Of a stretch of DNA of 64,000 bases, positions 11,935-42,936 are shown one piece after another. Origin of the DNA: an uncultured Christensenella sp. (GTDB taxonomy: Bacteria > Bacillota > Clostridia > Christensenellales > UBA1242); NCBI GenBank assembly GCA_949292875.1, contig CASFBJ010000020.1, positions 11,744 through 75,743 on the forward strand. Reading direction: 5' to 3'. The notes under the pieces are model-generated. The model saw only the letters and a list, made by a program, of their open reading frames with translations, was not told the DNA's origin and ran no database searches. Numbering within the stretch: the first letter of the stretch is position 1; each line of letters starts with the position of its first letter. The position numbers and the translations under genes were made by a program.

Positions 11935-12015
11935 ATAATACTTTAATTTTAAAAATATAGCATAAATTAAAATTAAATATATTGCAAAATATTCAAAATT
12001 AAATGTAAAAGTCTA

Positions 12016-12044
12016 TTGATTTTATATAAAAAATATGGTATAGT
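12016..12044 (+). promoter_or_regulatory. SigA-type extended -10 promoter abutting the smpB start codon
   Basis: TTGATT (12016-12021), a 17-nt spacer, then TGgTATAGT (-10 at 12039-12044). The smpB ATG starts at 12051, 7 nt after the -10, and there is no Shine-Dalgarno sequence. Confidence 0.5.
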
Positions 12045-12050
12045 CTTAAT

Positions 12051-12506
12051 ATGAAAATAGTAAATACAAATAAAAAAGCAAAATTTTTATATTTTCTAGG
12101 AGATACTTTTGAAGCTGGTATAGAGTTAAAAGGTAGTGAAGTAAAAAGCATTAGAGATGGTGGAATTTCGCTAGACCAAAGTTATATTACTGTAGATGAT
12201 AGTCAACAAGTATATATTTTAAATTGTTTTATAAAGTCATACAAAAATACAGGTTCTTTTGTAGAAGACGAAAGAAGAAAAAGAAAACTTTTACTTAATA
12301 AGACAGAGATAAGAAAGATATATAAGCATATAAAAATTAAGGGAGGGACAGTAGTTCCAACAAAAGTTTACTTTAATGATAAGGGTTTGGTTAAGGTAGA
12401 AATATCACTTGCTAAAGGTAAAAAACTATACGATAAAAATCAGGCTTCAAAAGAAGCTAGCATGGATAGAGAAATGAAAATGTTTCAAAAAGGTATAGAA
12501 TATTAA
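12051..12506 (+). CDS. smpB: SsrA-binding protein SmpB
   Basis: 151 aa. Motifs NKKAKFLY, ELKGSEVKS, RKRKLLLNK and GKKLYDK. It lies directly upstream of the tmRNA. Confidence 0.93.
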   Translation: MKIVNTNKKAKFLYFLGDTFEAGIELKGSEVKSIRDGGISLDQSYITVDDSQQVYILNCFIKSYKNTGSFVEDERRKRKLLLNKTEIRKIYKHIKIKGGTVVPTKVYFNDKGLVKVEISLAKGKKLYDKNQASKEASMDREMKMFQKGIEY

Positions 12507-12520: not shown

Positions 12521-12891
12521 GGGGGCGATAATGGTTTCGACGGAGAAGATTAAGGGTGTAGATTGCATGCAGGCAGGGTCGACTGCCTCGAAAGACGACA
12601 AAAAAATAAACGCAGAAAATAACACAAACTACTCTTTCGGTAGTGCTGTTAGATTAGCTGCCTAATTTTCGGTAGCGAGTTTAGTAAAATTTTGTCTTAT
12701 TGGTTTTGCTAGGCTTTAATTAAATAAGGCGTTGTAAAAAAATGTTGCAGTTTTTTACAACTACAAGCAACTAAAGTATTTTTTTCTTTGTTTATGGAGA
12801 GAAAAGTAACAAAAATGAAACATAAACTAAGCATGTAGTAATCGCATTTTTACTTTTTCGGACGCGGGTTCAACTCCCGCCGTCTCCACCA
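12521..12891 (+). ncRNA. ssrA: tmRNA (SsrA), 371 nt, CCA encoded
   Basis: The 5' GGGGGCG pairs with 3' CGTCTCC-ACCA, including a G3:U pair. There is a T-arm GGGTTCAACTCCC. The internal tag reading frame ends ...AENNTNYSFGSAVRLAA-TAA, with the stop at 12663-12665. Confidence 0.93.
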
Positions 12892-12900
12892 TTTTTTTAA

Positions 12901-12990
12901 GGAGAGATGTCAGAGTGGTCTAATGTGCACGCTTGGAAAGCGTGTGTACTGTAAAAGGTACCGCAGGTTCAAATCCTGTTCTCTCCGCCA
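12901..12990 (+). tRNA. tRNA-Ser (GGA), class II long variable arm, CCA encoded
   Basis: Acceptor GGAGAGA/TCTCTCC. Anticodon stem CACGC/GCGTG with loop TTGGAAA. Long variable arm, and T-loop GGTTCAAATCC. Confidence 0.9.
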
Positions 12991-13082
12991 CAATTTTGCT
13001 CATCCGTACACAAGAGTATGGAGGGGCATTTTTTACAGCTTTTAAATCATTAGTATTAATAAAGATTTATTTGGAGGTTAGA

Positions 13083-13214
13083 ATGGAAGCATTAGATTTT
13101 AGGGATGACATTCAAAAATACAAGAATTTTGGAAATCTTACTCAACCATTTTTGACTAGAGAATTTATTTATAATAAAGTTATGATTGATGTAAATAATA
13201 AACATGAGGATTAA
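13083..13214 (+). CDS. small ORF (43 aa) overlapping the start of the next gene; it may be the detached N-terminus of that gene
   Basis: ATG at 13083 with RBS GGAGGT 4 nt upstream. The upstream extension in the ORF track (12933-) runs through tRNA-Ser and is not credible. Confidence 0.35.
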   Translation: MEALDFRDDIQKYKNFGNLTQPFLTREFIYNKVMIDVNNKHED

Positions 13215-13707
13215 GAATAGTATTTATTTTTTATTAAGTTTATGTTATTGGATTCATTATAATGTTAAGGACTCAAAAGAAAAAGCTGTACAAGATTTAA
13301 AATTTGTAAGAAGTTCGAAAGAGATTTGGGAAAGCAAAAAAGCAAGTGGGTGTACTGATTTTGCGATTTTATATGCAACTTTTGCTAGAACTTTAGGAAT
13401 TCCTACAACTATTTTATATACAGCGGAATACGAATGGGTAAAAAGATTAAAAAATGGGGAAGATACCGCTGAACATTTTGAACATAGTTTTTGTGAATCA
13501 TATTTTTGTGGAAAATGGGTTTTGGTAGATCCGACTTGTAGTTTTATTACAGAAAACTATAATCCTAATAGATTAGAGCTAACTTATAAAGTCGGAGATA
13601 AAAATGTTTTTATTCCTTATTATCGCGGAATTGATTTAGAAAAAAATCAAAATGTAAAAATCCATAATAAGAAGATGGATGAATTGTGTAGATTGTTAGA
13701 GATATAA
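13204..13707 (+). CDS. transglutaminase-like cysteine peptidase-fold protein
   Basis: Cys-His-Asp core pattern: SGCTDFAILYATFARTLGIPT ... HSFCESYFCGKWVLVDPT. There is no obvious RBS, and it overlaps the preceding ORF by 11 nt. Confidence 0.7.
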   Translation: MRIKNSIYFLLSLCYWIHYNVKDSKEKAVQDLKFVRSSKEIWESKKASGCTDFAILYATFARTLGIPTTILYTAEYEWVKRLKNGEDTAEHFEHSFCESYFCGKWVLVDPTCSFITENYNPNRLELTYKVGDKNVFIPYYRGIDLEKNQNVKIHNKKMDELCRLLEI

Positions 13708-14191
13708 ATTATCATTGTAACTCTATACTCTTATTTTATTTGTAATTAGGCATTGTGTAAAAATGCAACGCTATATAAAATTGTGATTATAAAATTATAA
13801 TGAATTTATATTGTCGCAGAACATTTGCTAAAGGTATGGTTGCTATTACAAAAGTGCTTTATGAATTAAATAAAACTAATGATAATTAATTTAAGAGATA
13901 TAACGATAAGATTTTTTAAAAAAGATTAAGAAAGGCAAGCAAAATTCATAAATAATACAAAAATGTTTTGAAAGCATTAAAGACAAATTTAATTTATTTT
14001 TTAGAAAATTATTAACAAAAAGTTCTGTTATTTTTGGTTTTTATATTGACTTTTTTGTAGTTTTACGTTACTCTTATTATAAATATTAATATATTATAAA
14101 AATAAGAAATAATAAAATTTTATGTGCGATAAATATTGTTCTTATTCTTAATATTAATAGGTTTATAAATAATTTACTTTAGGAGAATTTT

Positions 14192-15355
14192 ATGGGATTA
14201 CTTTCAAGAACAACAAAAGGACAAAAGAACAAAAAAGAACGAGATTTTCCAGAAAAAGCTAAATGTTATATTACTGAAAAAGGTCCTTTTGATGGTGAAT
14301 TTTTTATTAATTATAAAAAATATTGTGGTTATTATGGAACGGATGTGATAGAGCACAATAGAGACTTAACTAATCGAATTTGCGATTATCTTATTGATAA
14401 TCCAGATGTCGACCCTAAAATCTTTGGTGTGTATATTGTTAATTATGGTAGTGCTTTTGATAACTATAATTTTGCCAAAAATGTTAAAGGGGTAAATATA
14501 CTTGATCATCAACAGGCGATAGAAGAATGTGAAGCAAATGATTACAATTACAATAAATATGAAATGATTTATAAATTTGCAAGAGATATTCCTGGTGCTG
14601 ATATAGAAAGTTTAGCAAAAAGCTTTCCAAAACTTTCTGATTTTGAAGGACCAATAAGAGATGTTCCCATTGCTTTACAAATAGCTTATCCAAGGTCTTC
14701 TGTTTTAAAATATCAATATTTATTTGCAAGAGATATTCCTGGAATTTATAATGAAACTTTTCAAAATAATATTGTATTATATGGTGATGAATGTTTAAAT
14801 TATAAATTTGCAAAAGATGTAAAAGGGGCAGATGTTACCGCTCTTGCTCGCCGAATTTATAATAATGGAAATAAGGAACTACTTTATAAATATGCAAGAG
14901 ATGTTCCTGGTGTTGATGTAAAAGCATATGGCGAATATTTTTTAAATAACAAGGACACAGAATACAATATTTTATTTGCAAAAGATGTAAAGGGTGCTGA
15001 CATAAATGCACACGCAAATGTAATTATTGAAAACACTGAATTATTAAACAAAAAAGATGGAGTTCCTAACATAAACCCAATCGTAACATTTGCTACAGAA
15101 GTTAAAGGTGCAAATGTTGAAATGCTTCAAGATGCTGTAAATAATATTTATAAAAAATATTATCCAACAGAACAAGTTCCAGATTTGGAAACAATTTGTG
15201 AAGAATATAAAAAAGAACAAGTCAATCATGTTCAAAACAATATAAATACTGATGTTAAAGAAACAACAGAACAACGAAAAAGTATTATCACTGGAATTAA
15301 AAAATGCATTAGGAAAACTAAAGAAAAAGACAATGAATTAACATTAACAAAATAA
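14192..15355 (+). CDS. tandem-repeat protein of unknown family (about seven repeats with core Y-x-F-A-[KR]-D-[VI]-x-G-[AV]-[DN]-[VI])
   Basis: 387 aa, RBS AGGAG. Repeat cores are NFAKNVKGVNI, KFARDIPGADI, LFARDIPGIY, KFAKDVKGADV, KYARDVPGVDV, LFAKDVKGADI and TFATEVKGANV. Confidence 0.7.
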   Translation: MGLLSRTTKGQKNKKERDFPEKAKCYITEKGPFDGEFFINYKKYCGYYGTDVIEHNRDLTNRICDYLIDNPDVDPKIFGVYIVNYGSAFDNYNFAKNVKGVNILDHQQAIEECEANDYNYNKYEMIYKFARDIPGADIESLAKSFPKLSDFEGPIRDVPIALQIAYPRSSVLKYQYLFARDIPGIYNETFQNNIVLYGDECLNYKFAKDVKGADVTALARRIYNNGNKELLYKYARDVPGVDVKAYGEYFLNNKDTEYNILFAKDVKGADINAHANVIIENTELLNKKDGVPNINPIVTFATEVKGANVEMLQDAVNNIYKKYYPTEQVPDLETICEEYKKEQVNHVQNNINTDVKETTEQRKSIITGIKKCIRKTKEKDNELTLTK

Positions 15356-15397
15356 TTAAACAAATTTTATGTGGGATAAAGATTTTTCTTAACAGCA

Positions 15398-15550
15398 AAT
15401 TGGCTAATTAGATTTGCCATTATCTTATTGATAACCTAGATGTGAAGCTTAGAAAACTTGATAAGTATGTGATTAGTTATTTTAGCCCGCTAGCAATAGT
15501 CCGTATACGAAACACTTTTTCTCCGCCATATATTTTTAATGTAAAATAAA
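15398..15550 (+). pseudogene. decayed fragment paralogous to the 5' part of the 14192-15355 repeat-protein gene
   Basis: 15401-15480 aligns by eye with 14378-14455. LAN*ICHYLIDNLDVKLRKLDKYVISYFSP matches LTNRICDYLIDNPDVDPKIFGVYIVNYGSA. The fragment has an in-frame TAG and no start codon. Confidence 0.6.
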
Positions 15551-15623
15551 GCTCATATAGTATAAAAATGTAAGATATTATGTTGAATTACCTTTATTAA
15601 TAGTGCTATGCATAGGAGGGGAT

Positions 15624-16220
15624 ATGTTTTATGTTATTTCACAAGTATTAATTTTTTGTGCGTTAGTTATTGATTTAGTTGGTAAATGTCTTAAAAGTAA
15701 AAAACAAATATTAACTTGTTCTATTATAGCGGCAATGTTTTATGTGAGTTCATATCTCTTTCTTTTTACATGGTTAGGTGCTATTGCAAATGCTCTTAAT
15801 TTTATTAGACTGTTATGGTACATATTGTTAGATAATAAACAAAGTCCTTATCGGTATTATCTTATACCTATGATTGTTACTATTGTACTATTTACAGTTA
15901 GTTTAGTTATTTTTTGGAAAGGGCCAACAGATTTATTAGTGTTATATATCACAATTATTTATTCGGTAGGTTATTCATTTAAGAATGATTTGATTACTAG
16001 AATAACAATAATATTAGCAAGTGTCGGTTGGTTTATATTTGACTTTACGCTTCATGCTTATGTAAATATGTTTTGTGATGTTACCGGACTGGTTATAGCG
16101 TTTATTGGTATAATTGTATACAATATACTTCCATATAGGAAAAACAAAAAGCAAAGAGAACTTCAAGATGATAAATTGAACATTAAAAATTCACATTTTG
16201 AAAATGCCTTAGATAATTAA
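15624..16220 (+). CDS. YgjV-like inner membrane protein
   Basis: ATG at 15624 with RBS AGGAGG (15614-15619). It has about 5-6 TM helices. The pattern ANALNFIRLLWY resembles YgjV-family proteins, recalled from memory. Confidence 0.5.
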   Translation: MFYVISQVLIFCALVIDLVGKCLKSKKQILTCSIIAAMFYVSSYLFLFTWLGAIANALNFIRLLWYILLDNKQSPYRYYLIPMIVTIVLFTVSLVIFWKGPTDLLVLYITIIYSVGYSFKNDLITRITIILASVGWFIFDFTLHAYVNMFCDVTGLVIAFIGIIVYNILPYRKNKKQRELQDDKLNIKNSHFENALDN

Positions 16221-16350
16221 TTTATTAGATAAATATAATATAAAAATAGGGTAATAGTATGAGTCCTATTTTTTATTTATATTTTTCATTATTGACATTT
16301 ACTATGATATATGATATTGTTAAAGTAATAATATAAAAGGAGTTTTTTCA

Positions 16351-16923
16351 ATGGAACAAGTAAATGATAAAGTTATGTATAGTGTAAATGTTTTAGCAAA
16401 TCATAAAACATTAATTAAACAAAGAAAAAAAATTTATGCTATGAATTTTGTGTTGTTGATGATTTGTACGGTTATAATTGGAATTATTGATTTTATTTTG
16501 TTAAATTCTCAAAATTCTTCTGCATATTTTGGTTTAATTTTTGTAATTCTAAGTTTTTTATGTGCAATGTATTTTTTGTATATGTTTTTTCATCCTAAAA
16601 ATAAAGTTGAGGATGCGATAATTGAGTATAAATTTTATGAAAATCATTTTAGTATAAAATATTTGGCAAATATTAAGAAAATGCAATATAGAGAAGTAGA
16701 TTTTATGTATTTTCCTGTTAAAAATTATCAATATCTTAACTACATTAAAGAAGATAAGGAAAATTATTATATAAAATTATTTGAGACAAGAGTTTTTTTT
16801 GTATTTTTAACAGGTGGGACATGTATTATACCTAAAGATGTTTTTCATAATGAAGATGAAATGAAAAGTTTTTCAGACTTTTTAGAGAATAGACTTGGTA
16901 GAAAATATAAAAATAAAGAATAA
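16351..16923 (+). CDS. hypothetical membrane protein (YcxB-like architecture: two TM helices plus a C-terminal soluble domain)
   Basis: 190 aa with RBS AAGGAG. A candidate promoter is TTGACA (16292-16297), 17 nt, then TATTGT. Confidence 0.45.
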   Translation: MEQVNDKVMYSVNVLANHKTLIKQRKKIYAMNFVLLMICTVIIGIIDFILLNSQNSSAYFGLIFVILSFLCAMYFLYMFFHPKNKVEDAIIEYKFYENHFSIKYLANIKKMQYREVDFMYFPVKNYQYLNYIKEDKENYYIKLFETRVFFVFLTGGTCIIPKDVFHNEDEMKSFSDFLENRLGRKYKNKE

Positions 16924-16956
16924 TGCATTAGATATGCTATTATCTTTAATTCAAAA

Positions 16957-17013
16957 TAAAACATTTTAAAGTATTACATATAAAACATTTTAAAGTATTA
17001 CATATAAAACATA
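16957..17013. repeat. 24-nt tandem direct repeat, about 2.4 copies
   Basis: TAAAACATTTTAAAGTATTACATA occurs at 16957-16980 and identically at 16981-17004, followed by a partial third copy TAAAACATA. Confidence 0.9.
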
Positions 17014-17076
17014 TTTTAAAAGGTTTATAAAATAAAATTATATCGCACTTGTATATTTTATCTTGAAACTTATATC

Positions 17077-17113
17077 AAAAAGGAACATTACCATTTTAGT
17101 AAAGTTCCTTTTT
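17077..17113. terminator. bidirectional hairpin terminator
   Basis: AAAAAGGAAC (17077-17086) pairs with GTTCCTTTTT (17104-17113). It lies between the convergent genes 16351-16923 (+) and 17168-18409 (-). Confidence 0.55.
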
Positions 17114-17167
17114 AGTTTATTATGTTGCTAGTTTAAAAAGGTTTAACTTAGTTTAATTGTGAATTAT

Positions 17168-18409
17168 TTACTTGTTTTTTTCTGCTTTATATTGCTCTAT
17201 TTCAGAATATGTATCTAATAAACTAAATCTTTTATTAGAATTTGATTTGTATACTGAGTATATATGTTTTAACTTTTCAAGTGCTAAGTTTTGCATTTCT
17301 TTATCAAAGAAAGATAAAACATTTTTATTTGTTATTATAGATTTTATTAAGAAATCACTATTATTTTTTAAAGTAGAAGATGCGTATTTTATATTTTCAC
17401 CACTTTTATCTATTTGCAAAACTTCCAACATAAAGTCGGGATTGTTTTTTAGTTCATAATCAATAAAATCTAGTATATCACAATTTTGTTTTAGTAATGA
17501 AAGGGTAAAATCTTTGTCTTGTTTTAAATCTTTACTTGCAAAGAAGAAAGCGCCATTATTATCTTTTGTTGCTAAGGATACAATATTTTTATCACTCTTT
17601 AATTTGTCGCTTGCATACTTTAGAAAAAGTCCATTATTTTTTATCATATCTATCATAAAACTATCACTTTCCCTTTGTTCTCGTGGGATATTGTATAGAC
17701 TAAAATTATTACCTATTTTCATACTTGTCAAAACATCAAAATCACTTTTTATAGTTTTATCTATATATAGCAAGGCATCTGCATTTTGCTTAACTGCTTT
17801 TATTGCTAATTCTTTATCTTTCTGTAGTTCCTTACTTGCGTATTGGATGTATACACCATTAATTTCAACTAATTTACTCATAAAAGATTTGCTTGCACAA
17901 ATATATTCGGCAATGTATGGTATAAACCACTTATGTTCTTTTGCTATTTCAAGAATTAGGTTTTGGTTGTTTATAAGTTTGGTAATTAATGTATTATCTT
18001 TGAACACATCTTTAACTGCGTATAGGGCAGAATAAGGATTAGATTTTATTGCGGTATATACAACATCTACATCTTTTTGCAAATCTTCGCTTGCGTATTT
18101 TAAGGCTATACCATCTATAGTAACTATTTTTAATACAAAATCTTTATCATTTTTAAGCCTTTTGCTAGCGAAACTTAAGTAGTGTACATTTTGAGATTGT
18201 GTAATAGTTAAATATATAATGTCTTCATCATCTTTAAGTTCATCTGAAAGATAACAAATAACATTTGGATTTTGCTTTATTAGATTACTTGCTAAATCTT
18301 TATCTGTTTTCCATTTTTCAGTACATGATTGTATTAGAGTAGGATTTTCTTGTGCTAGTTGAGAGTACATAAACTTTTTTTTATCTAAATTTTGTTGAAC
18401 TAATTTCAT
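17168..18409 (-). CDS. DUF4116-type repeat protein
   Basis: 413 aa with about 8 repeats of roughly 35-45 aa. An example is DKDFVLKIVTIDGIALKYASEDLQKDVDVVYTAIKSNP; others read L.YAS..LK.DK. This matches my recollection of DUF4116. Confidence 0.7.
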   Translation of the reverse strand: MKLVQQNLDKKKFMYSQLAQENPTLIQSCTEKWKTDKDLASNLIKQNPNVICYLSDELKDDEDIIYLTITQSQNVHYLSFASKRLKNDKDFVLKIVTIDGIALKYASEDLQKDVDVVYTAIKSNPYSALYAVKDVFKDNTLITKLINNQNLILEIAKEHKWFIPYIAEYICASKSFMSKLVEINGVYIQYASKELQKDKELAIKAVKQNADALLYIDKTIKSDFDVLTSMKIGNNFSLYNIPREQRESDSFMIDMIKNNGLFLKYASDKLKSDKNIVSLATKDNNGAFFFASKDLKQDKDFTLSLLKQNCDILDFIDYELKNNPDFMLEVLQIDKSGENIKYASSTLKNNSDFLIKSIITNKNVLSFFDKEMQNLALEKLKHIYSVYKSNSNKRFSLLDTYSEIEQYKAEKNK

Positions 18410-18577
18410 GATAAACTCCTTTGATTTTTACATAATTATAGTATACTCTTAAAACACTAAAAAGTCAATATGGATAATTTATCAATATAAAAAGTTAGAA
18501 AATGAAATTGTTTATCATGTTGACATGTTTATATAAATGTGATAACATGAAAAGAGAAAAAAGTGGAGAGAAAAAAT

Positions 18578-19267
18578 ATGGAAATAATACTTGCAAAAAG
18601 AAAAGATTTGAAAAATAGATTTATTGAATTAAAAAAAGAAAGCAAAAAAGATAAAGAGTCTAAAATAAACTTTAATAAATCAAGAGAAAGTAGTGTAGCA
18701 ATAATAAAAAATAGTAAAAAACTTTATAAAAAATCATCTATAAAAACGGTTTTGAAGTTAGCAACTTTGTCTACTAGTATTGCAATGATTTTTGTGTTTT
18801 TACATAATATGGATATACCAAGCATTATTGATCAGATACAATCAAACGCAGAAGCTAAAGTTTTATCTACAGAAAATTTGTCAATAGTGAAAGATAAAGC
18901 TGTACAAACTTTAAAAAATTTAACAAATAATGAACTTTTCAAAGACTTATTTATATCTACATTAAGTCTTGGAATTGCATCAAAAATAATATCTATATAC
19001 AAAAAATCACAGAAAAAGCAAGATATTAAAAAGGTTCAATGTGCTATTTTAGAGAATGAATTAGAAAAAGATGAAATAAATAAGTTGGAAAAACTTGCTA
19101 AGAAAAAAGGAGCAAGTATAGGTCTTGCACCTGAGGTGTATGTTGCGAAAAATATGTGCAGAAATGGTAGACTAAGTAATGCTAAGGAATCTTTTCAAGA
19201 AGATATATATGATGAAGATGATTCAAATATTGTAAAAGAAAATGTAGAGCAAGAGATGAGTATGTAG
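18578..19267 (+). CDS. hypothetical two-TM, Lys-rich membrane protein (first of an architectural pair)
   Basis: ATG at 18578 with RBS GGAGAG. A candidate promoter is TTGACA, 17 nt, then TAACAT at about 18520-18548. The layout is K-rich N-terminus, TM, ~50-aa loop, TM, K-rich coiled tail. Confidence 0.55.
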   Translation: MEIILAKRKDLKNRFIELKKESKKDKESKINFNKSRESSVAIIKNSKKLYKKSSIKTVLKLATLSTSIAMIFVFLHNMDIPSIIDQIQSNAEAKVLSTENLSIVKDKAVQTLKNLTNNELFKDLFISTLSLGIASKIISIYKKSQKKQDIKKVQCAILENELEKDEINKLEKLAKKKGASIGLAPEVYVAKNMCRNGRLSNAKESFQEDIYDEDDSNIVKENVEQEMSM

Positions 19268-19275
19268 GGGGTAAT

Positions 19276-19854
19276 ATGTTTTTAAAAAAAGAGAAAAAAA
19301 GAAATGAAAATCAAAATGAGTATATTGTTGTTGAAGAATACACAAACTTTGAAGACTATAAAACATCACATATAAGCAAAGATTATAAAGCTTTAAAAAA
19401 TAATGCCAAAAGTGGTGAAAAAGAAAATGAGCAGTTTGTAAAAGCTGAAAGAGTAGCAAAATTGTATGTAAAACACGATAAAAAATTGAGAAAATGTAAA
19501 ATCAAGACATTGGGTAAAATTATAGCTTCTGTGGGTGTAATAGTTACAATCGCTGGTGTGGTTATAAGTTCTAAAAACGAAATAATGAATTATTTATTTG
19601 ATCCTAATTACTCATTAGGAGATATAAAAGCTTATGCAAATTTTTTTGGTGAAAAATTGAAGCAAGCACCTTACGCTAAAGAAGGATTAAGTGCATTCGT
19701 TGCTGGACTTGGTGTAATGGCTTTGGGAACTGGATTAAGGGAGAGGAAAAAGAACATAGAAAAGAAAAGGGCAGTTCTTGAGCTGATAGAGACTAAAGCT
19801 ATAGATGAAGAAAAACCATATAAGTATTTGGTAGAACATGAAAAGTTGAAATAA
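19276..19854 (+). CDS. hypothetical two-TM, Lys-rich membrane protein (second of the pair)
   Basis: 192 aa, starting 8 nt after the previous stop. It has the same K-rich/TM/loop/TM/K-rich layout. Confidence 0.55.
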   Translation: MFLKKEKKRNENQNEYIVVEEYTNFEDYKTSHISKDYKALKNNAKSGEKENEQFVKAERVAKLYVKHDKKLRKCKIKTLGKIIASVGVIVTIAGVVISSKNEIMNYLFDPNYSLGDIKAYANFFGEKLKQAPYAKEGLSAFVAGLGVMALGTGLRERKKNIEKKRAVLELIETKAIDEEKPYKYLVEHEKLK

Positions 19855-19974: not shown

Positions 19975-20880
19975 TTACAATTCATAAAAATCTTTTCCTT
20001 TGCTCGCTTTTTGTGAAGACTTTCTTTTAGGATTTGGTTTAAGTTCTATTATATTGTGTTTTGTTATTGTACTTTGTTCTGCACTTTGTTTTGAATTAGA
20101 GTAAGATAACTTTTTATTACGAGCTAAACTCGCCGTTCTTACAGGTTTAAATAGTGCAATAATTAGTAGTAAGACAGGAATGGATATGCAAAGAATTATT
20201 GCTAATTGAGATGATGATGGAGGTGTAAAACCTAAACCGCCATCTTCTTTTTTTGTTGTAGACCAGTCATGCGCATCTATTGGGTTTGCGTCTAAACTAA
20301 GTCTATATATTTCTTTCATTTGGTCTGTTAGTCCTGCGTACACATATCCTTTAAGTGTACTATTGTTTTTTGTATAACTACAAAAATACCATATATCTCC
20401 TCTTTTTGAAACTACTTCTTCGCCTTGAATTTCTCCATAATATATGAAGTTGGTTTCATATAAGTCTAGTTCACAAAGCAGGGAATTTATTCCGTTTGAG
20501 CGTGAAGGCTCACTTCTTAGTTCTGCACTTTGACTTGCTAATATTCTAAAATTTATATTAGTTAAAAAAGGGACTGGTGGTGCATTTTGAACGCATTGTA
20601 TGTCGGCGGACTTTACATAACCTATTTGCTCTAAATATTTTGCCTTATAAAAGCCTTGTTCGTTTTCTTGTTGTAATAATTCTACATAGTATGTTGCAGG
20701 TATTTCAAAAATGGGTTTTCCATTTGGAGAATAGTACAGAAATACTCCTTCTTTTTGTATTTGAGCAAACTTATCCATTGAAGATTCTTCTGCATACAAG
20801 TTTGAAATGCTACTTTTGTAAGGAAAAATAAATATTAAACTAAAAGCAATAAAATACATTAGAATAAAATATTTTTTCAT
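19975..20880 (-). CDS. secreted/anchored protein with SH3b-like domains and a C-terminal TM plus basic tail
   Basis: 301 aa: a signal peptide, two ~70-aa beta-rich segments that look SH3b-like, a TM (LAIILCISIPVLLLIIALF) and a K/S-rich tail. Confidence 0.5.
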   Translation of the reverse strand: MKKYFILMYFIAFSLIFIFPYKSSISNLYAEESSMDKFAQIQKEGVFLYYSPNGKPIFEIPATYYVELLQQENEQGFYKAKYLEQIGYVKSADIQCVQNAPPVPFLTNINFRILASQSAELRSEPSRSNGINSLLCELDLYETNFIYYGEIQGEEVVSKRGDIWYFCSYTKNNSTLKGYVYAGLTDQMKEIYRLSLDANPIDAHDWSTTKKEDGGLGFTPPSSSQLAIILCISIPVLLLIIALFKPVRTASLARNKKLSYSNSKQSAEQSTITKHNIIELKPNPKRKSSQKASKGKDFYEL

Positions 20881-20975: not shown

Positions 20976-22427
20976 ATGCAAAAAAATGTAAAACTAGAAA
21001 GCGTAATATTAAAGCAAAAAATTAATTTGGCAAAAAAAATAAAATTGCATTTAGATAATTGTAAACCAAATGAAAAGTTGCAAAGATACAATAATGGTAA
21101 AGTGAAGCATGAAAAACAATTAGCTTTCCATAAGTGTATGAAAAGGAATAGGTGGGTTTTTGGTGGTAATAGAAGCGGAAAGACTGAATGTGGAGCGGTG
21201 GAAGCAGTGTGGCTAGCAAGAGGAATACATCCTTATAAAAAAAATAAAAAAGATATTCAGGGTTGGATTGTGTCGTTGACAACACAAGTACAAAGAGATG
21301 TAGCGCAATCAAAGTTTTTAAGTTATTTGAATAAGGCTTGGATAGATGATGTAGTTATGCAAACGGGTAAAAAAGTTTGTCCTGAAAATGGTGTTATAGA
21401 TTATATTGCTATAAAAAATGTTTTTGGTGGTATAAGTAAGATAGGATTCAAAAGTTGTGACCAGGGTAGAGAGAAGTTTCAGGGTGCTAGTCTTGATTTT
21501 GTTTGGTTTGATGAAGAACCGCCAAAAGATATATATGATGAATGTAAAATGAGAGTGCTAGATAAGAAAGGTGAGATTTTTGGGACAATGACTCCACTGA
21601 AAGGTTTAACATGGGTATATGATACTATATATTTGAATAATAATGCAGATAGCGAAGTTTGGTATGAATTTATGGAGTGGAGTGATAATCCTTACTTAGA
21701 TAAGGAAGAAGTAGAGCATTTAACTAAATCTATGAGTGAAGAAGAGCTTGAGAGCAGGAGATATGGACATTTTGTAGGTGGCGGTGGATTAGTTTATTCA
21801 AATTTTGACGAAGCAATACATGTTATAGAACCTTTTGATATACCATATGATTGGTATGACAATATAAGCATTGACCCTGGATTAAAAAATCCGTTAAGTT
21901 GTCATTTTTATGCTTGTGATTATGATGGAAATATATATGTTATAGCAGAACATTATGCGAAAGAAATGGAAATAAAAGACCATGCAAAAGCAATACTAGA
22001 AATAGCAGATAATTTGCATTGGCATAGGACATATAATGGCAAACTGTCGGCACTTATAGATAGCGCCGCTAATCAAAGAACGCTTGCAAGCGTAAAAAGT
22101 GTAAGCGAACTTTTTTATGATTTTGGCATTTCTGTAAATCCTAATGTAAATAAAGACCTTTTTTCAGGAATAAATAGAGTTAGATACTATTTAAAAGATG
22201 CTAATGGTAAAGCAAAGCTTTTTATATTTAAAAACTGTGTAAACCTAATAAGAGAAATAAAAGCTTACACTTGGGGAGATGGAGATGTACCTGTGAAAAA
22301 AGATGACCATGCTTTAGATGAACTCAGATATTACATTATGAGTAGACCAGAGAATATAGCAAAACCTCAAGAAAAAACAATAGTACAAAAAGATAAAGAA
22401 AAATTATGGAGAAAAAAGTATAAATAA
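20976..22427 (+). CDS. phage terminase large subunit (solitary)
   Basis: 483 aa, RBS AGGAG (20966-20970). Walker A is GGNRSGKT, Walker B is LDFVWFDEE, the coupling motif is GTMTPL, and the C-terminal nuclease motif is KKDDHALDELRYY. There are no adjacent phage genes. Confidence 0.85.
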   Translation: MQKNVKLESVILKQKINLAKKIKLHLDNCKPNEKLQRYNNGKVKHEKQLAFHKCMKRNRWVFGGNRSGKTECGAVEAVWLARGIHPYKKNKKDIQGWIVSLTTQVQRDVAQSKFLSYLNKAWIDDVVMQTGKKVCPENGVIDYIAIKNVFGGISKIGFKSCDQGREKFQGASLDFVWFDEEPPKDIYDECKMRVLDKKGEIFGTMTPLKGLTWVYDTIYLNNNADSEVWYEFMEWSDNPYLDKEEVEHLTKSMSEEELESRRYGHFVGGGGLVYSNFDEAIHVIEPFDIPYDWYDNISIDPGLKNPLSCHFYACDYDGNIYVIAEHYAKEMEIKDHAKAILEIADNLHWHRTYNGKLSALIDSAANQRTLASVKSVSELFYDFGISVNPNVNKDLFSGINRVRYYLKDANGKAKLFIFKNCVNLIREIKAYTWGDGDVPVKKDDHALDELRYYIMSRPENIAKPQEKTIVQKDKEKLWRKKYK

Positions 22428-22430
22428 AAA

Positions 22431-22450
22431 AAGACATAGTAGTATGTCTT
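22431..22450. terminator. bidirectional hairpin terminator after TerL
   Basis: AAGACATA (22431-22438), loop GTAG, then TATGTCTT (22443-22450). An A-run lies upstream and T-rich sequence downstream. Confidence 0.6.
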
Positions 22451-22454
22451 TAAT

Positions 22455-26686: not shown

Positions 26687-29600
26687 ATGTTGCAAATTAA
26701 ATCAAACAAACATTTTAATCGCAAGATTTACATATTTGGTATAATTTGTGCTGTATGCCTCATTTTTTTAGGTTCAATAATCACTACTTTAGCGTTGTTT
26801 TCTTCAAGTAAAAAAGACTATATAGATATAAACTTTAATGATGAAAATGTAAAAATAGATGCAATTCTTAATCCTGATAGTACAGATGGATATGCTGATG
26901 TAACTTTATTAAAATTTTTTAAACCTTCTGTTGAAGTGCCTTATGTAGATTTGTTACAATCAGCGCAAATTACGCTTTCACAATCTTCAAGGTCTGCTTT
27001 AAATGCTCGTTTTAGAATAGGGTTTGAATATTATGATGCTCAAAATATAAATAATGAAAAACTACAAACTATTATTAGTTATTTGAACAATAGTGTAGAT
27101 TTTTCAAGTGTTGTTTCAACTAATCCTTATATTGGTTGTTCATGGGTTTTTAATGTTAGTTCTGGATATTATGAACTAAAAAGTGGAGATTCCTTAGCTG
27201 TATTAGATAGCTCTGCAAAAGAAATAACTATTTCTATGGTTGATAGTAGGGTAGTTTTTAGCGGAATAGAAAATCTGAATATTGATAAAAATTTGTTTAC
27301 AGGAGAGGATAAGAATATTTTTGAAAAAATTTCTCTTGCTGTGCAGTTTGAAATTGTAGATTCAGGTTCTAACTTTTCTATTAATGCGCCAACTTATTCA
27401 TATGGGAAAGTTGCTATATTTGATACAAATGGTGGAGATAAGATTGAGGCAAAACTTTTAACAGGTGATAATGTTGTCTTACCTAATGCAACTAAAGGTG
27501 GTCAAACATTTGATGGTTGGTATGGTGAGGCTGCATACAACACTCTTATAGGCCAAGCTGGACAAACTGTTGCGCAAACTGAAAAAAACAAAACATATTA
27601 TGCTAGTTTTTCTCCAACAAAATATGTTGTTACTTTAGATCCTAATGGCGGTATACTATATGGTTCAACTTCGTTACATATACTAAACAATGTACTCTTT
27701 GGAGAAGATTTTCTATCTTCGCCAGCTATAACATACAAGACAGGATATGAATTTTTAGGATATTTTGATGAAAATAACTTATGCTATATAAACGAAAAAG
27801 GCGAAGCTATAAGAAAATGGGATAAAACAGAGAGTGCTACACTAACGGCAAAATATTCTAATCCTTTAGTTTACAATATTGTCTACACAAATATAGAACC
27901 AGAAGCGTATTTTGGAGATGAAACCGTTTATGATTATACATTTGGTGATGTAAAAGTTGTGCCTAATCCTATAAAAGGCGGATACGATTTTGATGGTTGG
28001 TTAGTAAATGGGAATAGTAACCCTGTTAAAGATTTTACAATTAATGCAACAACAAGTGGTACTATATACCTAGAAGCAAAATTTACGCCAATCAATTATA
28101 CTGCGACTTTGACTTATGGTGGTACAACTTCTAATTTAACTTATAATATAGAAAGTGGCTTAACATTGCCTACTGTTTCCGCTTCATATGCAGGTTTTCA
28201 AGTACAATCAAAAGTAGGTAATTGGGAGCAAGGTGAAAGATATGCGGTAGGTAGTATAGTAACTCAAAGATTTGGAAATGTAACCCTTGTTGCAGTGAAT
28301 GCAATTGAAGGTATAATCTTTGATGGAAATACGAAAGATGATTTTTATGTAGAACCTATAGGTTTAGGCATTGATACAGATGCAACTGTTATTTTACCTA
28401 ATGCGTATAGAGATGGATATATTTTCCAGGGTTGGTACTTTGATTCTGCTTGCACACAGGTGTGTGAAAGAGTTTATAAAGTAGATTTAAGTGACTTTGA
28501 TGAAGAATACAAACTATATGCAAAATGGACTGCTGGAGAAGCAAAATATACAGTAACATTGCATAATGATAACGGTTTAGACCAAACTATAGAATTCACT
28601 CAAAATTCTGAAAAAAAAGGTACATTTAATATACCATCTACAATAGTACCTCCAGTAAAAAATGGTTATGTTTTTGCAGGATATTATACTAAAGAAAACA
28701 GTGAAGGATTTAAGTTTTATAACAATGCAGGGGCTTCTTTAATCGCAGAGTTTACAAACGCCTATACTACATCTTATGAGTATACCTACGATTTGTATGC
28801 TAGTTGGGTCCAAAATCTATACAGTATTACGTTTGATACTAATGGTGGAACTGCAGTTTCTACAATATACTATACTTCAAATACAGAAAGTGTAAATTAT
28901 CCTACAACAGCAAAATATGGATATACATTTAAAGGTTGGGAAATAGTTAGTCAAGATGGTAATTGGTCTACAACAACTATAGGTGTACAAGATGTAATTA
29001 ATACTTTAAACTTGTATGGCAATGTTGCGCTTAAGGCGATATTTGAACCAATTGTTTATAATGCTACATTCTATTATCTTGCATTAGATGATACAACAAA
29101 GCAATTTACAACTTTAACGCAAGCCGTTACATATACATTAGATGATACAGTCTTGACATTACCTTCAAATTCGTTAACAGGTCACTTATTTAAGGGCTGG
29201 GAAGTTACTTCTGGTATGGGTTCATGGAAACTAGGGCAATTATATGATGCAAGCACAACAACAATAAACTTAAACTCTAGTTACTATGGAGATGTAAACT
29301 TTACAGCAAGGTATGATGTTACAACTTATACTATAAATTTTGAATATCTACTTAATGGTGTAGTGCAAACAGGTGAAGAGTATGTACAAGCAACAAAACC
29401 TATATACTTTACATATCAAAACACATCTGTGACATTAAGAAATTTGTTAGATAATATTGGTTACGAGTTTAATGCTTGGAAACCAAAGGCAAATGCGGGT
29501 GCTTGGCAAACTACTGAATCATTTATGTCTGGCGAAGTTGTGTCAATTACAGCGGATAGATTGTATAATGTAACATTAGTTTCTGATATTACTAAATTTT

Positions 29601-32509
29601 TTGATAGCGGTGATGGCAGCACATCTAATCCATTTATAATAAAGACTTCTGACCAATTGCATAATTTAAGTACTGTAATAAATTCTCCTACACTTTATCA
29701 AAAATATAGTTCATTATCATACGAACTAGGTGGAGATATTATGATTGTAGGTGATACGAAAACATCTGTAAGTATTGATGGTACAAACCATAATGGTATA
29801 TTTGTTTCTATAGGTACTACAAGTTATCCATTTAAAGGAATATTTGATGGTAAGGGATATACTATTTCTAATCTAATTACGGCAACAAGTCAAAAAAGGA
29901 GCAGTGGGCTTTTTGGTCTTACAGATGGCGCAACTATTAGAAATGTAAATCTTGAAGGTGCTAAGATTTATTCAAGTAACTCTGGTGCAGGGGCAATTGT
30001 TGCTTATGCTATTAATAGAACCTTAATCGAAAATTGTCATAATAATTCAACGACGGGAACTATTTTAAGTATTGCTAATAATGTTGGTGGAATAGTAGGT
30101 GAAATGTATAATTCAACAATAAAAAATAGTTCTAATAAGTCTTCTGTAAGTGGTTATAATCAATTAGGCGGAGTAGTTGGCGGTGTCTATGAAAATTCGG
30201 TTGTGTACAATGTTGCAAATTATGGTAGCATTTATGCAAATAAGATTGGTAGCAATGCATATGATGTAGGAGGAGTTATCGGTAAGATTGGAGGGTCCGC
30301 TTCTACTCAAACTACATGGGGTTCTTGTATTGCTATTAATCTATATAATGCAGGCGCTATTACTACTAAACAAGGTTCAAATTATTCATCTGCTGTAGGT
30401 ACAATTGTTGGTTATAAAGGATATGCTTCGTATGTTTTTAATGCGTATTCTGATGGTGTTCTCACATATTATGGTACAAATACTGGTCCAGGTGGTGGCA
30501 TAGGTTCTGGTCGTTATAATGAACAAAATGATACAACTCAGTCAGCAAATGGTTTAAGGAATATATATTACAAAGAAAATACATATATAAGAACAGATGG
30601 AACAACAAATACTTATGTAAATGACTCTAATGTAGATGGATACAACTTAAGTGAAAATGCAATAATAGGAAATGGTGTAAATATCATTACAGATTATGCA
30701 ATATATGGTACAAAAGCATTTGCTTCGCTTGCAACACTATTTAATGCGTGGATATATGATTTAGTAAATATGTCTGGCCTTATGCCACCAAGGCATTATA
30801 CTATGGGTAGTGATAGTTATGTAGATTACGACTCATTATATGAGTATATACAAGTTTTAGGGTTTAGTAATGATGACTTAAATTATTGGATAAAATCTAC
30901 AACGCCTACCAAAACTGCATACATAACTCAACCAAAAGATGGCTTAACTTCTATATATTTTAAAATAGTAGATTTGAATGGCGGTAGTTTAAATGGTACA
31001 TATTCTAGAGTTTATGGCAAAGTTGTGAAATCTGATGGAACTCTTTTATATGAAGATTCTGAAATTATTTATAAAAAAGATTTTACAAGAAGTGGCTACA
31101 GATTTGTTGGTTTAAATACTCAACCTGATGGTAAAGGAACTTTTATAAATCCTCAAACAAATACCAATGGCGAATATTATAATATTACAGTTGGAGATGT
31201 GGTTGGTGTTGAGAAATATTATGCTGTATGGGAAAGACTTTTTGCAGAAGGTGAAGGTACTAAAGAAAAGCCTTACATGATTTCAAATGGTCAACATTTA
31301 GTGAATTTGGCACAACTTGTAAAATCTAATGCAGATAATGGTGCATATGCAACTGCTTATTATCACCAATCTTCAGAAATTCATTTGGAAGATTTTGAAG
31401 GCTTTGCTCCAATAGGAACCAGTACATATCCTTTTAAAGGTTATTATTACGGATATAACAAGATTATATATAATGACAAAATTGATTTGGCAAGTACGGA
31501 TAATGTTGGCTTATTTGGTTATACAAGTGGCGCTACACTTATGTCCATAAAGGTGTATTTCTCAAATGGTATAAAAGGTAAAAATAATGTTGGTGGTATA
31601 GTAGGCTATGCTAAAGACACTATAATTATTGATTGTGAAAATCAATCTACAAATATGACAGGAACAAATTATGTAGGTGGGATAGCGGGCTACTTGATTA
31701 AGTCTAGTGGAACATCTATGATTATAAATTCTAGGTCATCTGCTAATGTTACAGGAACTAATAATGTTGGCGGTTTAGTTGGCCGTGCAGATAATAGTAT
31801 AATTGAAAATAATGTTTTACATAGTACAAGGACAATAAAAGGCACAACAAATGTTGGTGGAGTATGTGGATATATGGTGTCTACAAAAATATTGAATATA
31901 GTTGTTCATCATATTGTATCATGTACAAATACTGCAGTCTCTGGTAAGTTAGTTGGTGTAATCGGAGGTACTGCCAGTGCAAGCACACTATCTTACTGTT
32001 ATTATAATAGTGCTGTAAATACACAGTTGCAGAATGTGGGAACGGGTACAGGATTTACTTCAAGCATTGTAGTAGGGTACGCACCGTCTTCACCATATAA
32101 ATTGAGTAGTAGTCAAACAATAGGAGGGTATACGGCTCAAACCGTGTATCAGGCAATGCATTTATATATAGAACATATTACTCATGCAAGTGCTTCAACT
32201 TATATACTTGGCTATTGGACTAATAGTTCGGGAGGCATTACTCCTTATCCAAATACTTATACATCTTATATGGTGGTGGTTACATTTTGTACAAATGCAG
32301 ATGTTAATTGGTCTGTATTCCCAGTACAAAGTGGATACAGAAATTTTGAACTTGAAGCACCAACAAAACCAACTAGAACAGGTTATACTTTCCTCGGTTG
32401 GTATGATGCGAGTGGTAATCAAATAATAAATGCATCAAATGAAATAGTAGGGGGAACTTATTTAGTTTCAAAAAATATGATTTTGTATGCAAAGTGGCAA
32501 TCTGCGTAA
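26687..32509 (+). CDS. giant cell-surface protein: N-terminal signal anchor, many Listeria-Bacteroides (Flg_new/InlB B-repeat) domains and two blocks of GLUG-type repeats
   Basis: 1940 aa, RBS AGGAGGG. Repeated G[YH]xFxGW[YE] motifs include GQTFDGWYG, GYEFLGYFD, GYDFDGWLV, GYIFQGWYF, GYVFAGYYT, GYTFKGWEI, GHLFKGWEV, GYEFNAWKP, GYRFVGLN and GYTFLGWYD. Runs of NVGGIVG, QLGGVVGG, YVGGIAG, NVGGLVG and NVGGVCG form the GLUG-like blocks. No LPXTG motif was seen. Confidence 0.85.
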   Translation: MLQIKSNKHFNRKIYIFGIICAVCLIFLGSIITTLALFSSSKKDYIDINFNDENVKIDAILNPDSTDGYADVTLLKFFKPSVEVPYVDLLQSAQITLSQSSRSALNARFRIGFEYYDAQNINNEKLQTIISYLNNSVDFSSVVSTNPYIGCSWVFNVSSGYYELKSGDSLAVLDSSAKEITISMVDSRVVFSGIENLNIDKNLFTGEDKNIFEKISLAVQFEIVDSGSNFSINAPTYSYGKVAIFDTNGGDKIEAKLLTGDNVVLPNATKGGQTFDGWYGEAAYNTLIGQAGQTVAQTEKNKTYYASFSPTKYVVTLDPNGGILYGSTSLHILNNVLFGEDFLSSPAITYKTGYEFLGYFDENNLCYINEKGEAIRKWDKTESATLTAKYSNPLVYNIVYTNIEPEAYFGDETVYDYTFGDVKVVPNPIKGGYDFDGWLVNGNSNPVKDFTINATTSGTIYLEAKFTPINYTATLTYGGTTSNLTYNIESGLTLPTVSASYAGFQVQSKVGNWEQGERYAVGSIVTQRFGNVTLVAVNAIEGIIFDGNTKDDFYVEPIGLGIDTDATVILPNAYRDGYIFQGWYFDSACTQVCERVYKVDLSDFDEEYKLYAKWTAGEAKYTVTLHNDNGLDQTIEFTQNSEKKGTFNIPSTIVPPVKNGYVFAGYYTKENSEGFKFYNNAGASLIAEFTNAYTTSYEYTYDLYASWVQNLYSITFDTNGGTAVSTIYYTSNTESVNYPTTAKYGYTFKGWEIVSQDGNWSTTTIGVQDVINTLNLYGNVALKAIFEPIVYNATFYYLALDDTTKQFTTLTQAVTYTLDDTVLTLPSNSLTGHLFKGWEVTSGMGSWKLGQLYDASTTTINLNSSYYGDVNFTARYDVTTYTINFEYLLNGVVQTGEEYVQATKPIYFTYQNTSVTLRNLLDNIGYEFNAWKPKANAGAWQTTESFMSGEVVSITADRLYNVTLVSDITKFFDSGDGSTSNPFIIKTSDQLHNLSTVINSPTLYQKYSSLSYELGGDIMIVGDTKTSVSIDGTNHNGIFVSIGTTSYPFKGIFDGKGYTISNLITATSQKRSSGLFGLTDGATIRNVNLEGAKIYSSNSGAGAIVAYAINRTLIENCHNNSTTGTILSIANNVGGIVGEMYNSTIKNSSNKSSVSGYNQLGGVVGGVYENSVVYNVANYGSIYANKIGSNAYDVGGVIGKIGGSASTQTTWGSCIAINLYNAGAITTKQGSNYSSAVGTIVGYKGYASYVFNAYSDGVLTYYGTNTGPGGGIGSGRYNEQNDTTQSANGLRNIYYKENTYIRTDGTTNTYVNDSNVDGYNLSENAIIGNGVNIITDYAIYGTKAFASLATLFNAWIYDLVNMSGLMPPRHYTMGSDSYVDYDSLYEYIQVLGFSNDDLNYWIKSTTPTKTAYITQPKDGLTSIYFKIVDLNGGSLNGTYSRVYGKVVKSDGTLLYEDSEIIYKKDFTRSGYRFVGLNTQPDGKGTFINPQTNTNGEYYNITVGDVVGVEKYYAVWERLFAEGEGTKEKPYMISNGQHLVNLAQLVKSNADNGAYATAYYHQSSEIHLEDFEGFAPIGTSTYPFKGYYYGYNKIIYNDKIDLASTDNVGLFGYTSGATLMSIKVYFSNGIKGKNNVGGIVGYAKDTIIIDCENQSTNMTGTNYVGGIAGYLIKSSGTSMIINSRSSANVTGTNNVGGLVGRADNSIIENNVLHSTRTIKGTTNVGGVCGYMVSTKILNIVVHHIVSCTNTAVSGKLVGVIGGTASASTLSYCYYNSAVNTQLQNVGTGTGFTSSIVVGYAPSSPYKLSSSQTIGGYTAQTVYQAMHLYIEHITHASASTYILGYWTNSSGGITPYPNTYTSYMVVVTFCTNADVNWSVFPVQSGYRNFELEAPTKPTRTGYTFLGWYDASGNQIINASNEIVGGTYLVSKNMILYAKWQSA

Positions 32510-40662: not shown

Positions 40663-40793
40663 GTTATATAATTATGTCTAAATTTTTAATTCAAGACTAA
40701 TTTTTTTAATTTTCAAAAAAAGTTGTCCTACCTTTTGTAAGTTTTTGTTTTTTATATGCTAGTATTTTGGCGAATGTGGTAAAGGAGGAGTTT

Positions 40794-41057: not shown

Positions 41058-41065
41058 CGGAGGTA

Positions 41066-42925: not shown

Positions 42926-42936
42926 AAGGAGATTAT

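Follow-up and report, generated by a model that had tools for sequence, protein, structure and literature searches.

An intact terminase gene apart from a podovirus-type structural module in an uncultured Christensenella sp.: probable halves of one gene transfer agent-like element

The terminase gene and the structural module

We analysed a 64,000-nt stretch of contig CASFBJ010000020.1 from an uncultured Christensenella sp. (the window, to which all positions refer), in which an intact gene for the large terminase subunit (TerL) stands 18.4 kb away from a cluster of phage head, short-tail and lysis genes (the module), and the two loci probably form one gene transfer agent (GTA)-like element. 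The window has a G+C content of about 28% and the appearance of a Clostridia-type chromosome, and its assembly is of the metagenome type and low in GC. The G+C content of both loci is about 30-31%, inside the window range, so composition gives no sign of recent acquisition at either. TerL relatives number in the thousands, the 120 best being 67-76% identical and lying on long contigs of Clostridia metagenome-assembled genomes (MAGs). In a scan of one genome per species, 315 species-representative genomes had a TerL relative. The loci of the best 80 of these 315, almost all from Christensenellaceae or other Christensenellales, were compared by searching the window proteins against them and clustering all of their open reading frames (ORFs); 76 of the 80 were informative, with sequence present downstream of TerL, and the remaining four stop at a contig edge. 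Related loci are cited by L numbers where they have to be told apart.

The TerL gene (20976-22427, plus strand) encodes 483 aa. Its product matched Terminase_6N in Pfam (6.9e-15, residues 63-280) and the terminase large subunit family phrog_2 in PHROG (1.2e-34), residues 251-468 matched the C-terminal TerL families phrog_5653, phrog_10250 and phrog_6672, and homologues carry PF17289. A preliminary description of this DNA had called the gene intact and located its motifs correctly: Walker A (GGNRSGKT) at residue 63, Walker B (LDFVWFDEE) at 173, the coupling motif (GTMTPL) at 203 and the nuclease acidic motif (DDHALDELRYY) at 443. By these matches the ORF has both parts of a large terminase, a predicted N-terminal ATPase domain and a predicted C-terminal RNase-H-like nuclease domain. 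It also has a ribosome-binding site of its own, as was claimed, with TAGGAG 7 nt upstream of the ATG.

There is no phage gene among the immediate neighbours of TerL on either side, in agreement with the earlier account. Upstream lies the divergent gene up301 (19975-20880, minus strand) for a 301-aa secreted or membrane-anchored SH3-like protein, and on the other side follow a 112-aa membrane protein (minus strand), a CDF transporter (minus strand) and murC. In 36 loci, among them all genomes of the lineage in which TerL is detached (the split lineage), a member of the up301 cluster immediately precedes TerL in divergent orientation; the Pfam match to SH3_3 was faint and found on the L002 orthologue, the window copy gave no Pfam match, and membership of up301 in the element is uncertain. 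Between the convergent TerL and 112-aa genes lies a 9-bp hairpin (22430-22451; dG -9.0 kcal/mol on the plus and -8.2 on the minus strand, z -5.8 and -5.4), followed by U7 on the minus strand and UUAAUUU on the plus strand. This hairpin had been assigned to TerL as its terminator; it is indeed present, but the uninterrupted U-run belongs to the minus strand, so that the hairpin would serve the 112-aa gene no less well than TerL, and it probably ends both convergent genes.

The module (40794-48919) lies entirely on the plus strand and encodes head, short tail and lysis functions. Searches of Pfam, PHROG and NCBIfam found no TerL in it, and the window has no paralogue of TerL or of any module gene, so the description of the module as lacking a terminase was accurate. 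Its first gene, g96 (40794-41057), encodes an acidic 87-aa protein and lies between TerL and the portal gene in at least 58 related loci. The module had been started at a TTG at 40767, but the ATG at 40794, preceded by the ribosome-binding site AAGGAGG, is the most likely start. The product had been labelled a small terminase subunit (TerS), and it does weakly match several viral TerS-annotated proteins in BFVD (best E 3.7e-4, 35% identity over 68 columns); the label had no support from Pfam, PHROG or NCBIfam, a PDB fold search gave no significant match, and the AlphaFold2 model (pLDDT 72) has a helix, a long beta-hairpin and two helices with no predicted helix-turn-helix (HTH). We tentatively regard it as a TerS-like fragment, that is, an HTH-less TerS without a recognisable DNA-binding domain.

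After a gap of 8 nt follows the gene for the 619-aa portal protein (41066-42925; P22_portal 1.1e-16, SU10_portal 1.3e-07, phrog_156 3.1e-34), which is 68% identical to its L087 orthologue. In some members of the family (L021, L024, L025, L027, L032, L049, L051, L055 and L079, also L084 at 11921-12139 and L085 at 14323-14541) g96 and the portal gene are separated by a 60-72-aa Zn-ribbon-like ORF (CxxC...CxxC; cluster c20), which is missing in the window. Next to the portal gene is that of a 236-aa candidate scaffolding protein (42937-43647), which has no Pfam, PHROG or NCBIfam family match and is named from its position alone, conserved between portal and capsid genes in 57 loci. The 407-aa major capsid protein (43681-44904) is of the podovirus type, with matches to phrog_14242 (3.5e-56) and NCBIfam NF033394 capsid_maj_Podo (2.3e-80, 270 bits) and a weak match to SU10_MCP, and is 82% identical to its L087 orthologue. 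It is followed by a conserved 109-aa protein (44984-45313) without any family match, which has orthologues at the same position in L087, L088, L090, L084, L085 and L002.

The tail genes begin with a 184-aa candidate head-to-tail adaptor (45318-45872), proposed from size and from its position just upstream of the nozzle gene, conserved in 52 loci; a profile search of PDB sequences gave no match beyond chance level. The nozzle (tail hub) protein of 506 aa (45863-47383) likewise had chance-level matches in that search, and its identity came from structure: the AlphaFold2 model (pLDDT 87.6, pTM 0.88) matched Pa223 in a Foldseek search of the PDB (4.9e-22, TM 0.70), as well as podovirus VP1, GP4, SU10, PhiM1, the P22 tail complex and T7 gp12, so that by its predicted fold it is a podovirus-type tail nozzle. 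At the distal end of the structural genes a 336-aa DUF7934 protein (47376-48386; PF25588 7.1e-30), conserved in 34 loci and with chance matches of the coiled-coil type only when PDB sequences were searched by profile, is a candidate tail needle or fibre. Some related lineages have a variable slot between the nozzle and DUF7934 genes with one or two unrelated genes for 280-390 aa (clusters c35, c76 and c83; L002 18177-19346); this is the place expected for a receptor-binding protein, and it is empty in the window. No tailspike was recognised in the module.

A 69-aa BhlA-family holin (48386-48595; PF10960 8.4e-20) was missing from the earlier gene inventory; its orthologues in L002, L087, L088 and L090 are annotated Holin_BhlA. 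The last gene, for a 107-aa membrane protein (48596-48919), may be a second holin or lysis partner from its position 3' of the holin, which is conserved in L087, L088 and L090; the L002 counterpart is annotated Phage_holin_1. An intrinsic terminator with a 10-bp stem and a T-run (48976-48999, plus strand; dG -10.4 to -11.8 kcal/mol, z -3.6) closes the module. On the 5' side, the plus-strand region 40723-40765 contains TTGTCC (40723-40728) and the extended -10-like TGCTAGTAT (40757-40765); TTGTCC and TGnTA(G/T)(T/G)(A/C)T-like elements recur 5' of g96 in four split-lineage genomes (the window, L087, L088 and L090), and the combination of TTGTCC with the TGnTAGTAT element could be a new promoter of the detached module. 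A generic sigma-70 promoter scan was uninformative in such AT-rich DNA. With TerL included, the predicted functions of the gene set cover most needs of a minimal short-tailed, DNA-filled particle.

Gene order in relatives and the origin of the split

In all 76 informative loci the orthologues of the module directly follow the orthologous TerL (62-69% identity) within 1.4 kb, and the usual order after TerL is g96, portal, 236-aa protein, capsid, 184-aa protein, nozzle and mostly the DUF7934 protein. TerL is also followed by module orthologues in L002. The preliminary description had proposed to check whether the two parts are present together in relatives, and they not only co-occur but adjoin. 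Judged from this synteny, the element is normally a single block of about 10 kb, running from TerL to one or more holin genes, that is widespread in Christensenellales. Because the order TerL-g96-portal was found in 76 of the 76 loci, the ancestral position of TerL is to be placed immediately upstream of g96, and the 18-kb separation is derived. An empty terminase slot had been seen in the 8-nt gap between g96 and the portal gene; this was mistaken, as TerL is upstream of the small gene in every informative locus and the break in the window falls in the 131-nt spacer 40663-40793 upstream of g96. The conclusion that the module had lost an adjacent terminase was nevertheless right, although the slot argument rested on a wrong gene order.

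The same comparison bears on a second proposal, in which TerL would be the last relic of a different prophage, unrelated to the module and closing an island that begins at an ssrA/tRNA-Ser hotspot. A tmRNA and a tRNA-Ser do lie 8 kb upstream of TerL, and the genes from tRNA-Ser to TerL differ among related genomes. However, the orthologous TerL is joined to the orthologous module in every informative genome, the up301(-)/TerL pair is ancestral and found also where no ssrA is nearby, with only the genes between ssrA and up301 varying, no integrase is present, and TerL, portal and capsid match the same phage lineage (see below). The synteny refutes an unrelated relic, which we find scarcely conceivable.

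The interval between TerL and the module carries genes on both strands, among them murC, a 1940-aa surface protein, tRNA-Asn, a response regulator, rplS and YetF/SpoVB-like genes, which bears out the statement that indispensable genes (murC, rplS) lie between the two loci. The 1940-aa protein (26687-32509, plus strand) has Listeria-Bacteroides repeats and a GLUG motif, and its orthologues in relatives reach about 3500 aa. This layout is not peculiar to the window. In GCA_964309875.1 (TerL 74% identical) TerL and g96 are on one 329-kb contig, on the same strand and 20.5 kb apart, and the interval is syntenic, with a 111-aa protein (-), murC, a giant Flg_new protein, rplS (-), a 400-aa protein, DUF4363 (-), YetF (-) and a SpoVB-like gene (-), followed downstream by the same flank as in the window (Rho-like protein, rpoZ and secE). 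The split layout was also found in ERZ27271109/SRR17704066, its TerL half in L089 (76% identity) and its module half in L090, and it is common to at least three to four other species.

It had been suggested that misassembly or inversion in the MAG should be checked, and an assembly or binning artefact would indeed be thinkable in a metagenome-type, low-GC assembly. Binning errors exist in such data: L025 (CAVJMJ010000005.1), a 93-kb contig with the full Christensenellales-type element and typical flanks, is deposited under the implausible name Parasutterella excrementihominis, probably a binning or labelling error. However, four other samples of the window's species reproduced both junctions, up301-TerL-112aa-CDF-murC and YetF-SpoVB-like-g96-portal, and since these come from independent samples and assemblers, misassembly is excluded. 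That other species have this architecture within one long contig each (329 kb and 197 kb) also speaks against an artefact, which we hold to be practically out of the question.

The sister genomes L084 and L085 (TerL 71-73% identical) have a single gene for 760-783 aa inserted at the TerL/g96 junction, and this gene is weakly similar (27-28%) to the 1940-aa surface protein of the window. On this comparison one insertion evidently opened the junction initially, and the gap widened afterwards. A single inversion as the origin of the split was rejected, since the orientation of TerL relative to the module is unchanged; the split would take either an insertion or two or more rearrangements. The rplS gene, which in several genomes with a contiguous element (L021, L024, L025, L080 and L081) is found on the plus strand a few kb before TerL, is inverted between TerL and the module in the window (35495-35851, minus strand); this hints that successive local inversions helped to create the split.

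Selection, vertical descent and phage ancestry

All ten genes of the element are intact in at least five split-lineage genomes. The MurC proteins of this clade are only 43-48% identical to that of the window, and identity to the window is 73-76% for TerL, 67-72% for the portal and 81-83% for the capsid protein. Ratios of nonsynonymous to synonymous divergence (dN/dS), calculated from L001-L083 for TerL and murC and from L087-L088 for the module genes, were 0.08 for TerL, 0.09 for the portal, 0.05 for the capsid and 0.27 for murC in the closest pair, and within the split lineage about 0.05-0.13 for TerL and 0.05-0.10 for the capsid, all of them approximate under saturated dS. An alignment of 75 module-linked TerLs has 184 columns with conservation of 97% or more; the window TerL keeps 177 of them, and the sister lineage has about as many changes (5-7). 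Because the mean identity of the window TerL to the contiguous TerL set is barely lower than that of the sister lineage (0.637 vs 0.647-0.650), nothing suggests relaxed constraint. By these measures the solitary TerL is under strong purifying selection. Both halves have remained strongly constrained after the split, as would be expected of a GTA-like particle retained by its host and not of a dead prophage.

Elsewhere in the family the element is flanked by housekeeping genes in a few recurrent arrangements (gyrB/gyrA, ssb, ispG, a DnaQ-like exonuclease, rimP, alr, dut and trmB). Pairwise identities of TerL and the portal were correlated (r = 0.82), as were those of TerL and flanking host genes (ssb 0.95, a deacetylase gene 0.88, cluster c7 0.90), all without correction for shared ancestry, and the mean pairwise identity of TerL was 0.72 vs 0.69 for SSB. 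These values point to vertical descent of the element with its hosts. Vertical inheritance under purifying selection across a host clade, which is expected of a GTA, is approximately what the data indicate.

The element might also be regarded as the functionless remnant of a decaying cryptic prophage, in which the split is a step of erosion and the halves no longer cooperate. Integrase, replication and lysogeny genes were not found, an endolysin or receptor-binding protein was not recognised in the window, and the Zn-ribbon ORF (c20) and a neighbouring sigma-like gene have been lost in the split lineage, all of which would suit decay. But the ten genes stayed intact despite the large divergence of MurC, dN/dS of TerL, portal and capsid (0.05-0.13) lies below that of murC, the same gene order recurs in the 315 species representatives, and TerL is as conserved as SSB. 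We consider decay very unlikely.

When 50,697 phage records were searched, the best identity was about 30% for TerL and 28% for the capsid protein. Microbacterium phage Shocker matched all three proteins (TerL 28%, portal 24%, capsid 28%) and has the order TerL, two small ORFs, portal, a small ORF, a scaffold-size ORF (297 aa) and capsid. A check of whether TerL and the portal come from the same phage ancestry had been proposed, and TerL, portal and capsid are indeed nearest to the same phage. IMG/VR gave six short fragments with a close TerL, and neither IMG/VR nor the phage records contained a complete close virus. By these matches TerL, portal and capsid share one phage lineage without a known free-living close relative.

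Interpretation as a GTA-like system and accompanying genes

Neither the window nor the relatives' loci contain integrase, repressor, replication or lysogeny genes, and none for replication, integration or lysogeny was present within 10 kb on either side in the annotated loci L002, L084 and L085. Judged by gene content, the element has the make-up of a GTA, with phage-derived structural and packaging genes and no replication, integration or lysogeny functions. It does not have that of a functional prophage, which would require an integrase or recombinase, attachment at a tRNA or tmRNA, a repressor, a replication module and a contiguous genome, nor does it appear to be a capsid-forming phage-inducible chromosomal island or other phage satellite; no integrase, AlpA-type regulator or primase-replicase lies beside TerL or the module in the window, L002, L084 or L085. 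Lacking such genes and interrupted by essential host genes, the element is unable to spread as a virus, and its maintenance must depend on selection at the level of the host. Self-transfer is implausible in this lineage, where the coding loci extend over about 28 kb with essential genes among them.

TerL and the cluster 40794-48919 share a common origin as two parts of a single ancient phage-derived element that has been passed down vertically, and we consider it probable that this element is a domesticated podovirus-type GTA-like system with a trans-acting terminase. The preliminary description had proposed one packaging machine at two loci in a GTA-like layout, and synteny, the recurrent split, covariation of identity, the common phage and selection on TerL all support that proposal. 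In an ancestor of the window's clade the TerL/g96 junction was opened, and about 18-20 kb of ordinary chromosome (murC, the giant surface protein, rplS and others) now lie between. The module would build portal-bearing procapsids with a short podovirus tail, and TerL, expressed together with it from the old promoter 18 kb away, would pump DNA into these procapsids in trans; one or more holins would then release the particles by lysis. The product would most likely be a GTA-like particle carrying short pieces of host DNA. With no replication or integration genes, fixation across the order, co-divergence with its hosts and, in one clade, interruption by essential genes, the element fits the genomic definition of a domesticated GTA-like system.

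A domesticated element could also serve something other than transfer, such as killing or competition by a particle freed through lysis, release of extracellular DNA or biofilm material, or another capsid function of the PBSX kind. There are holin genes within the module, no receptor-binding protein was identified, and FpGTA, the GTA of Faecalibacterium prausnitzii, might itself act like PBSX instead of transducing (PMC12946183). However, the conserved, motif-intact terminase and the portal speak for DNA packaging as the activity under selection, the module encodes a nozzle-type tail through which DNA would be ejected, and in Christensenellaceae short host fragments have been seen to be packaged in a GTA-like manner (PMC12946183). 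We regard a non-transfer use as unlikely.

Several points weigh against the main interpretation. Conservation of the element would fit equally well if the host profited from a capsid in another way, such as through a killing particle or by releasing DNA. The dN/dS ratios are rough, as dS was saturated (1.2-3, and near or above 1 in the closest pair), and the identity correlations take no account of shared ancestry and involve no tree reconciliation. The upstream regions of TerL and g96 (eight sequences) had no common motif above shuffled controls, neither an endolysin nor a receptor-binding protein was recognised in the window, and the sigma-70 region-4-like gene found near TerL in other lineages is absent there in the window, L001 and L083, which belong to the split lineage. 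By analogy with FpGTA, the endolysin and the receptor-binding protein may be located elsewhere.

The sigma-like gene (cluster c9) encodes a 150-190-aa protein with a sigma-70 region-4 type domain and lies two genes upstream of TerL (c9, up301(-), TerL) in 36 relatives, for example at 816-1322 in L032, and also occurs in L084 (5995-6585) and L085 (8489-9058). It is possible that c9 is a dedicated regulator of the element in most lineages. As a regulator in the window it was rejected, given its absence near TerL.

The closest known counterpart is FpGTA, a 10.5-kb podovirus-like operon of ten ORFs with particles of 40 nm that contain 8.4-8.9 kb of host DNA and a second locus of tail and lysis genes 125 kb away (PMC12946183, Nat Commun 2026). 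The host of either is a Gram-positive gut anaerobe, and both have roughly ten structural ORFs in some 10 kb, coding for TerL, portal, a protein in the scaffold position, capsid and short-tail proteins. They also share a small TerS-like protein in which no DNA-binding domain is obvious, holin genes for lysis, the lack of replication and lysogeny genes, and a multi-locus organisation (FpGTA I and II 125 kb apart). They differ in order: FpGTA has TerS upstream of TerL, TerL next to the portal and a Prp-like protein between portal and capsid, whereas the order here is TerL, small protein, portal, 236-aa protein, capsid. The detached part is tail and lysis genes in FpGTA and the terminase in the window. 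The FpGTA capsid is named 'N4-gp56 family' by NCBI, whereas the window capsid is capsid_maj_Podo with no N4-gp56 match, a comparison of labels only. Orthology is unlikely because the capsid protein is of a different family, and on annotation labels and gene order the window element is probably not an FpGTA orthologue; no Faecalibacterium names appeared among cluster look-ups of 50%-representative matches.

GTA-like packaging with peaks at about 4-7 kb has been reported in the Christensenellaceae genera HGM11616 and QANA01, where the genes were not named (PMC12946183), and the element in the window is a natural candidate for the genes behind it. We hold with about even confidence that the gene set is an order-wide Christensenellales GTA of podovirus type, domesticated independently of FpGTA and the source of the 4-7 kb Christensenellaceae packaging; the window clade would then amount to a natural experiment, its terminase gene having been severed from the structural genes and long kept as a trans-acting host gene.

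The GTA of Rhodobacter capsulatus (RcGTA), with its alphaproteobacterial relatives, resembles the system proposed here: it is a domesticated phage structural cluster that is vertically inherited across an order-level clade, with essential parts at several loci acting in trans, a TerS without DNA-binding domain and release by lysis (PMC12946183). It differs in being siphovirus-like, with an HK97-type head and a long tail, and in having the terminase inside its main cluster, its dispersed loci being fibres, lysis genes and regulators. No sequence relationship to RcGTA was seen, and the nearest phage matches were podovirus or actinophage TerL and capsid proteins at 24-30% identity.

In structure the element resembles podoviruses of the P22, SU10 and T7 type. 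The portal belongs to the P22_portal and SU10_portal families, the capsid is capsid_maj_Podo with a weak SU10_MCP match, the nozzle has the fold of Pa223, VP1, GP4, SU10, P22 gp10 and T7 gp12, and the order of adaptor-size gene, nozzle and coiled-coil protein mirrors gp4-gp10-gp26 of P22. Unlike these viruses it has no replication, early or lysogeny genes and no recognised tailspike, its identity to sequenced phages is at most 30%, and it is fixed in host chromosomes. The nearest sequenced phages, Microbacterium phage Shocker and actinophages like Arthrobacter phage Jasmine, share the local order, but they are complete 45-kb genomes of Actinobacteria phages and very distantly related.

Christensenellales are a heritable, health-associated gut lineage, and to our knowledge very few GTA-like elements are known outside Alphaproteobacteria. 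FpGTA, published in 2026, was the first from a human-gut commensal (PMC12946183), and the present element is a concrete GTA candidate in hundreds of Christensenellales species. A terminase that is separated from the capsid genes by essential genes and is more constrained than murC is hard to explain by selfish phage maintenance, and argues for host-level selection. For annotation, the case warns that a single system can appear in a genome as a 'solitary terminase' plus a 'TerL-less head module'.

Some neighbouring genes were recorded in addition. The stretch 12521-19854, between smpB/tmRNA/tRNA-Ser and up301-TerL, has wholly different contents among related genomes and no integrase; the window has transglutaminase-like, YgjV, YcxB and DUF4116 proteins there, and L001 and L083 have MazE, an ABC transporter, an aldo-keto reductase and a Na/Ca exchanger. 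Just 3' of the module, beside rpoZ, a 448-aa protein (49161-50507, plus strand) gave weak Rho_N and Rho RNA-binding matches and no ATPase domain match; the gene is conserved there in split-lineage genomes, in other Christensenellales (L003, L015 and L016) it is found a few kb upstream of gyrB-gyrA-TerL, and the protein could be a divergent or truncated Rho that recurs near the element. Further downstream, a 394-aa protein with collagen triple-helix repeats (56371-57555, minus strand) forms a local G+C peak of 0.37 and adjoins a MurG-like GT28 glycosyltransferase; a spore or surface protein of the BclA kind, or a fibre, could be encoded here.

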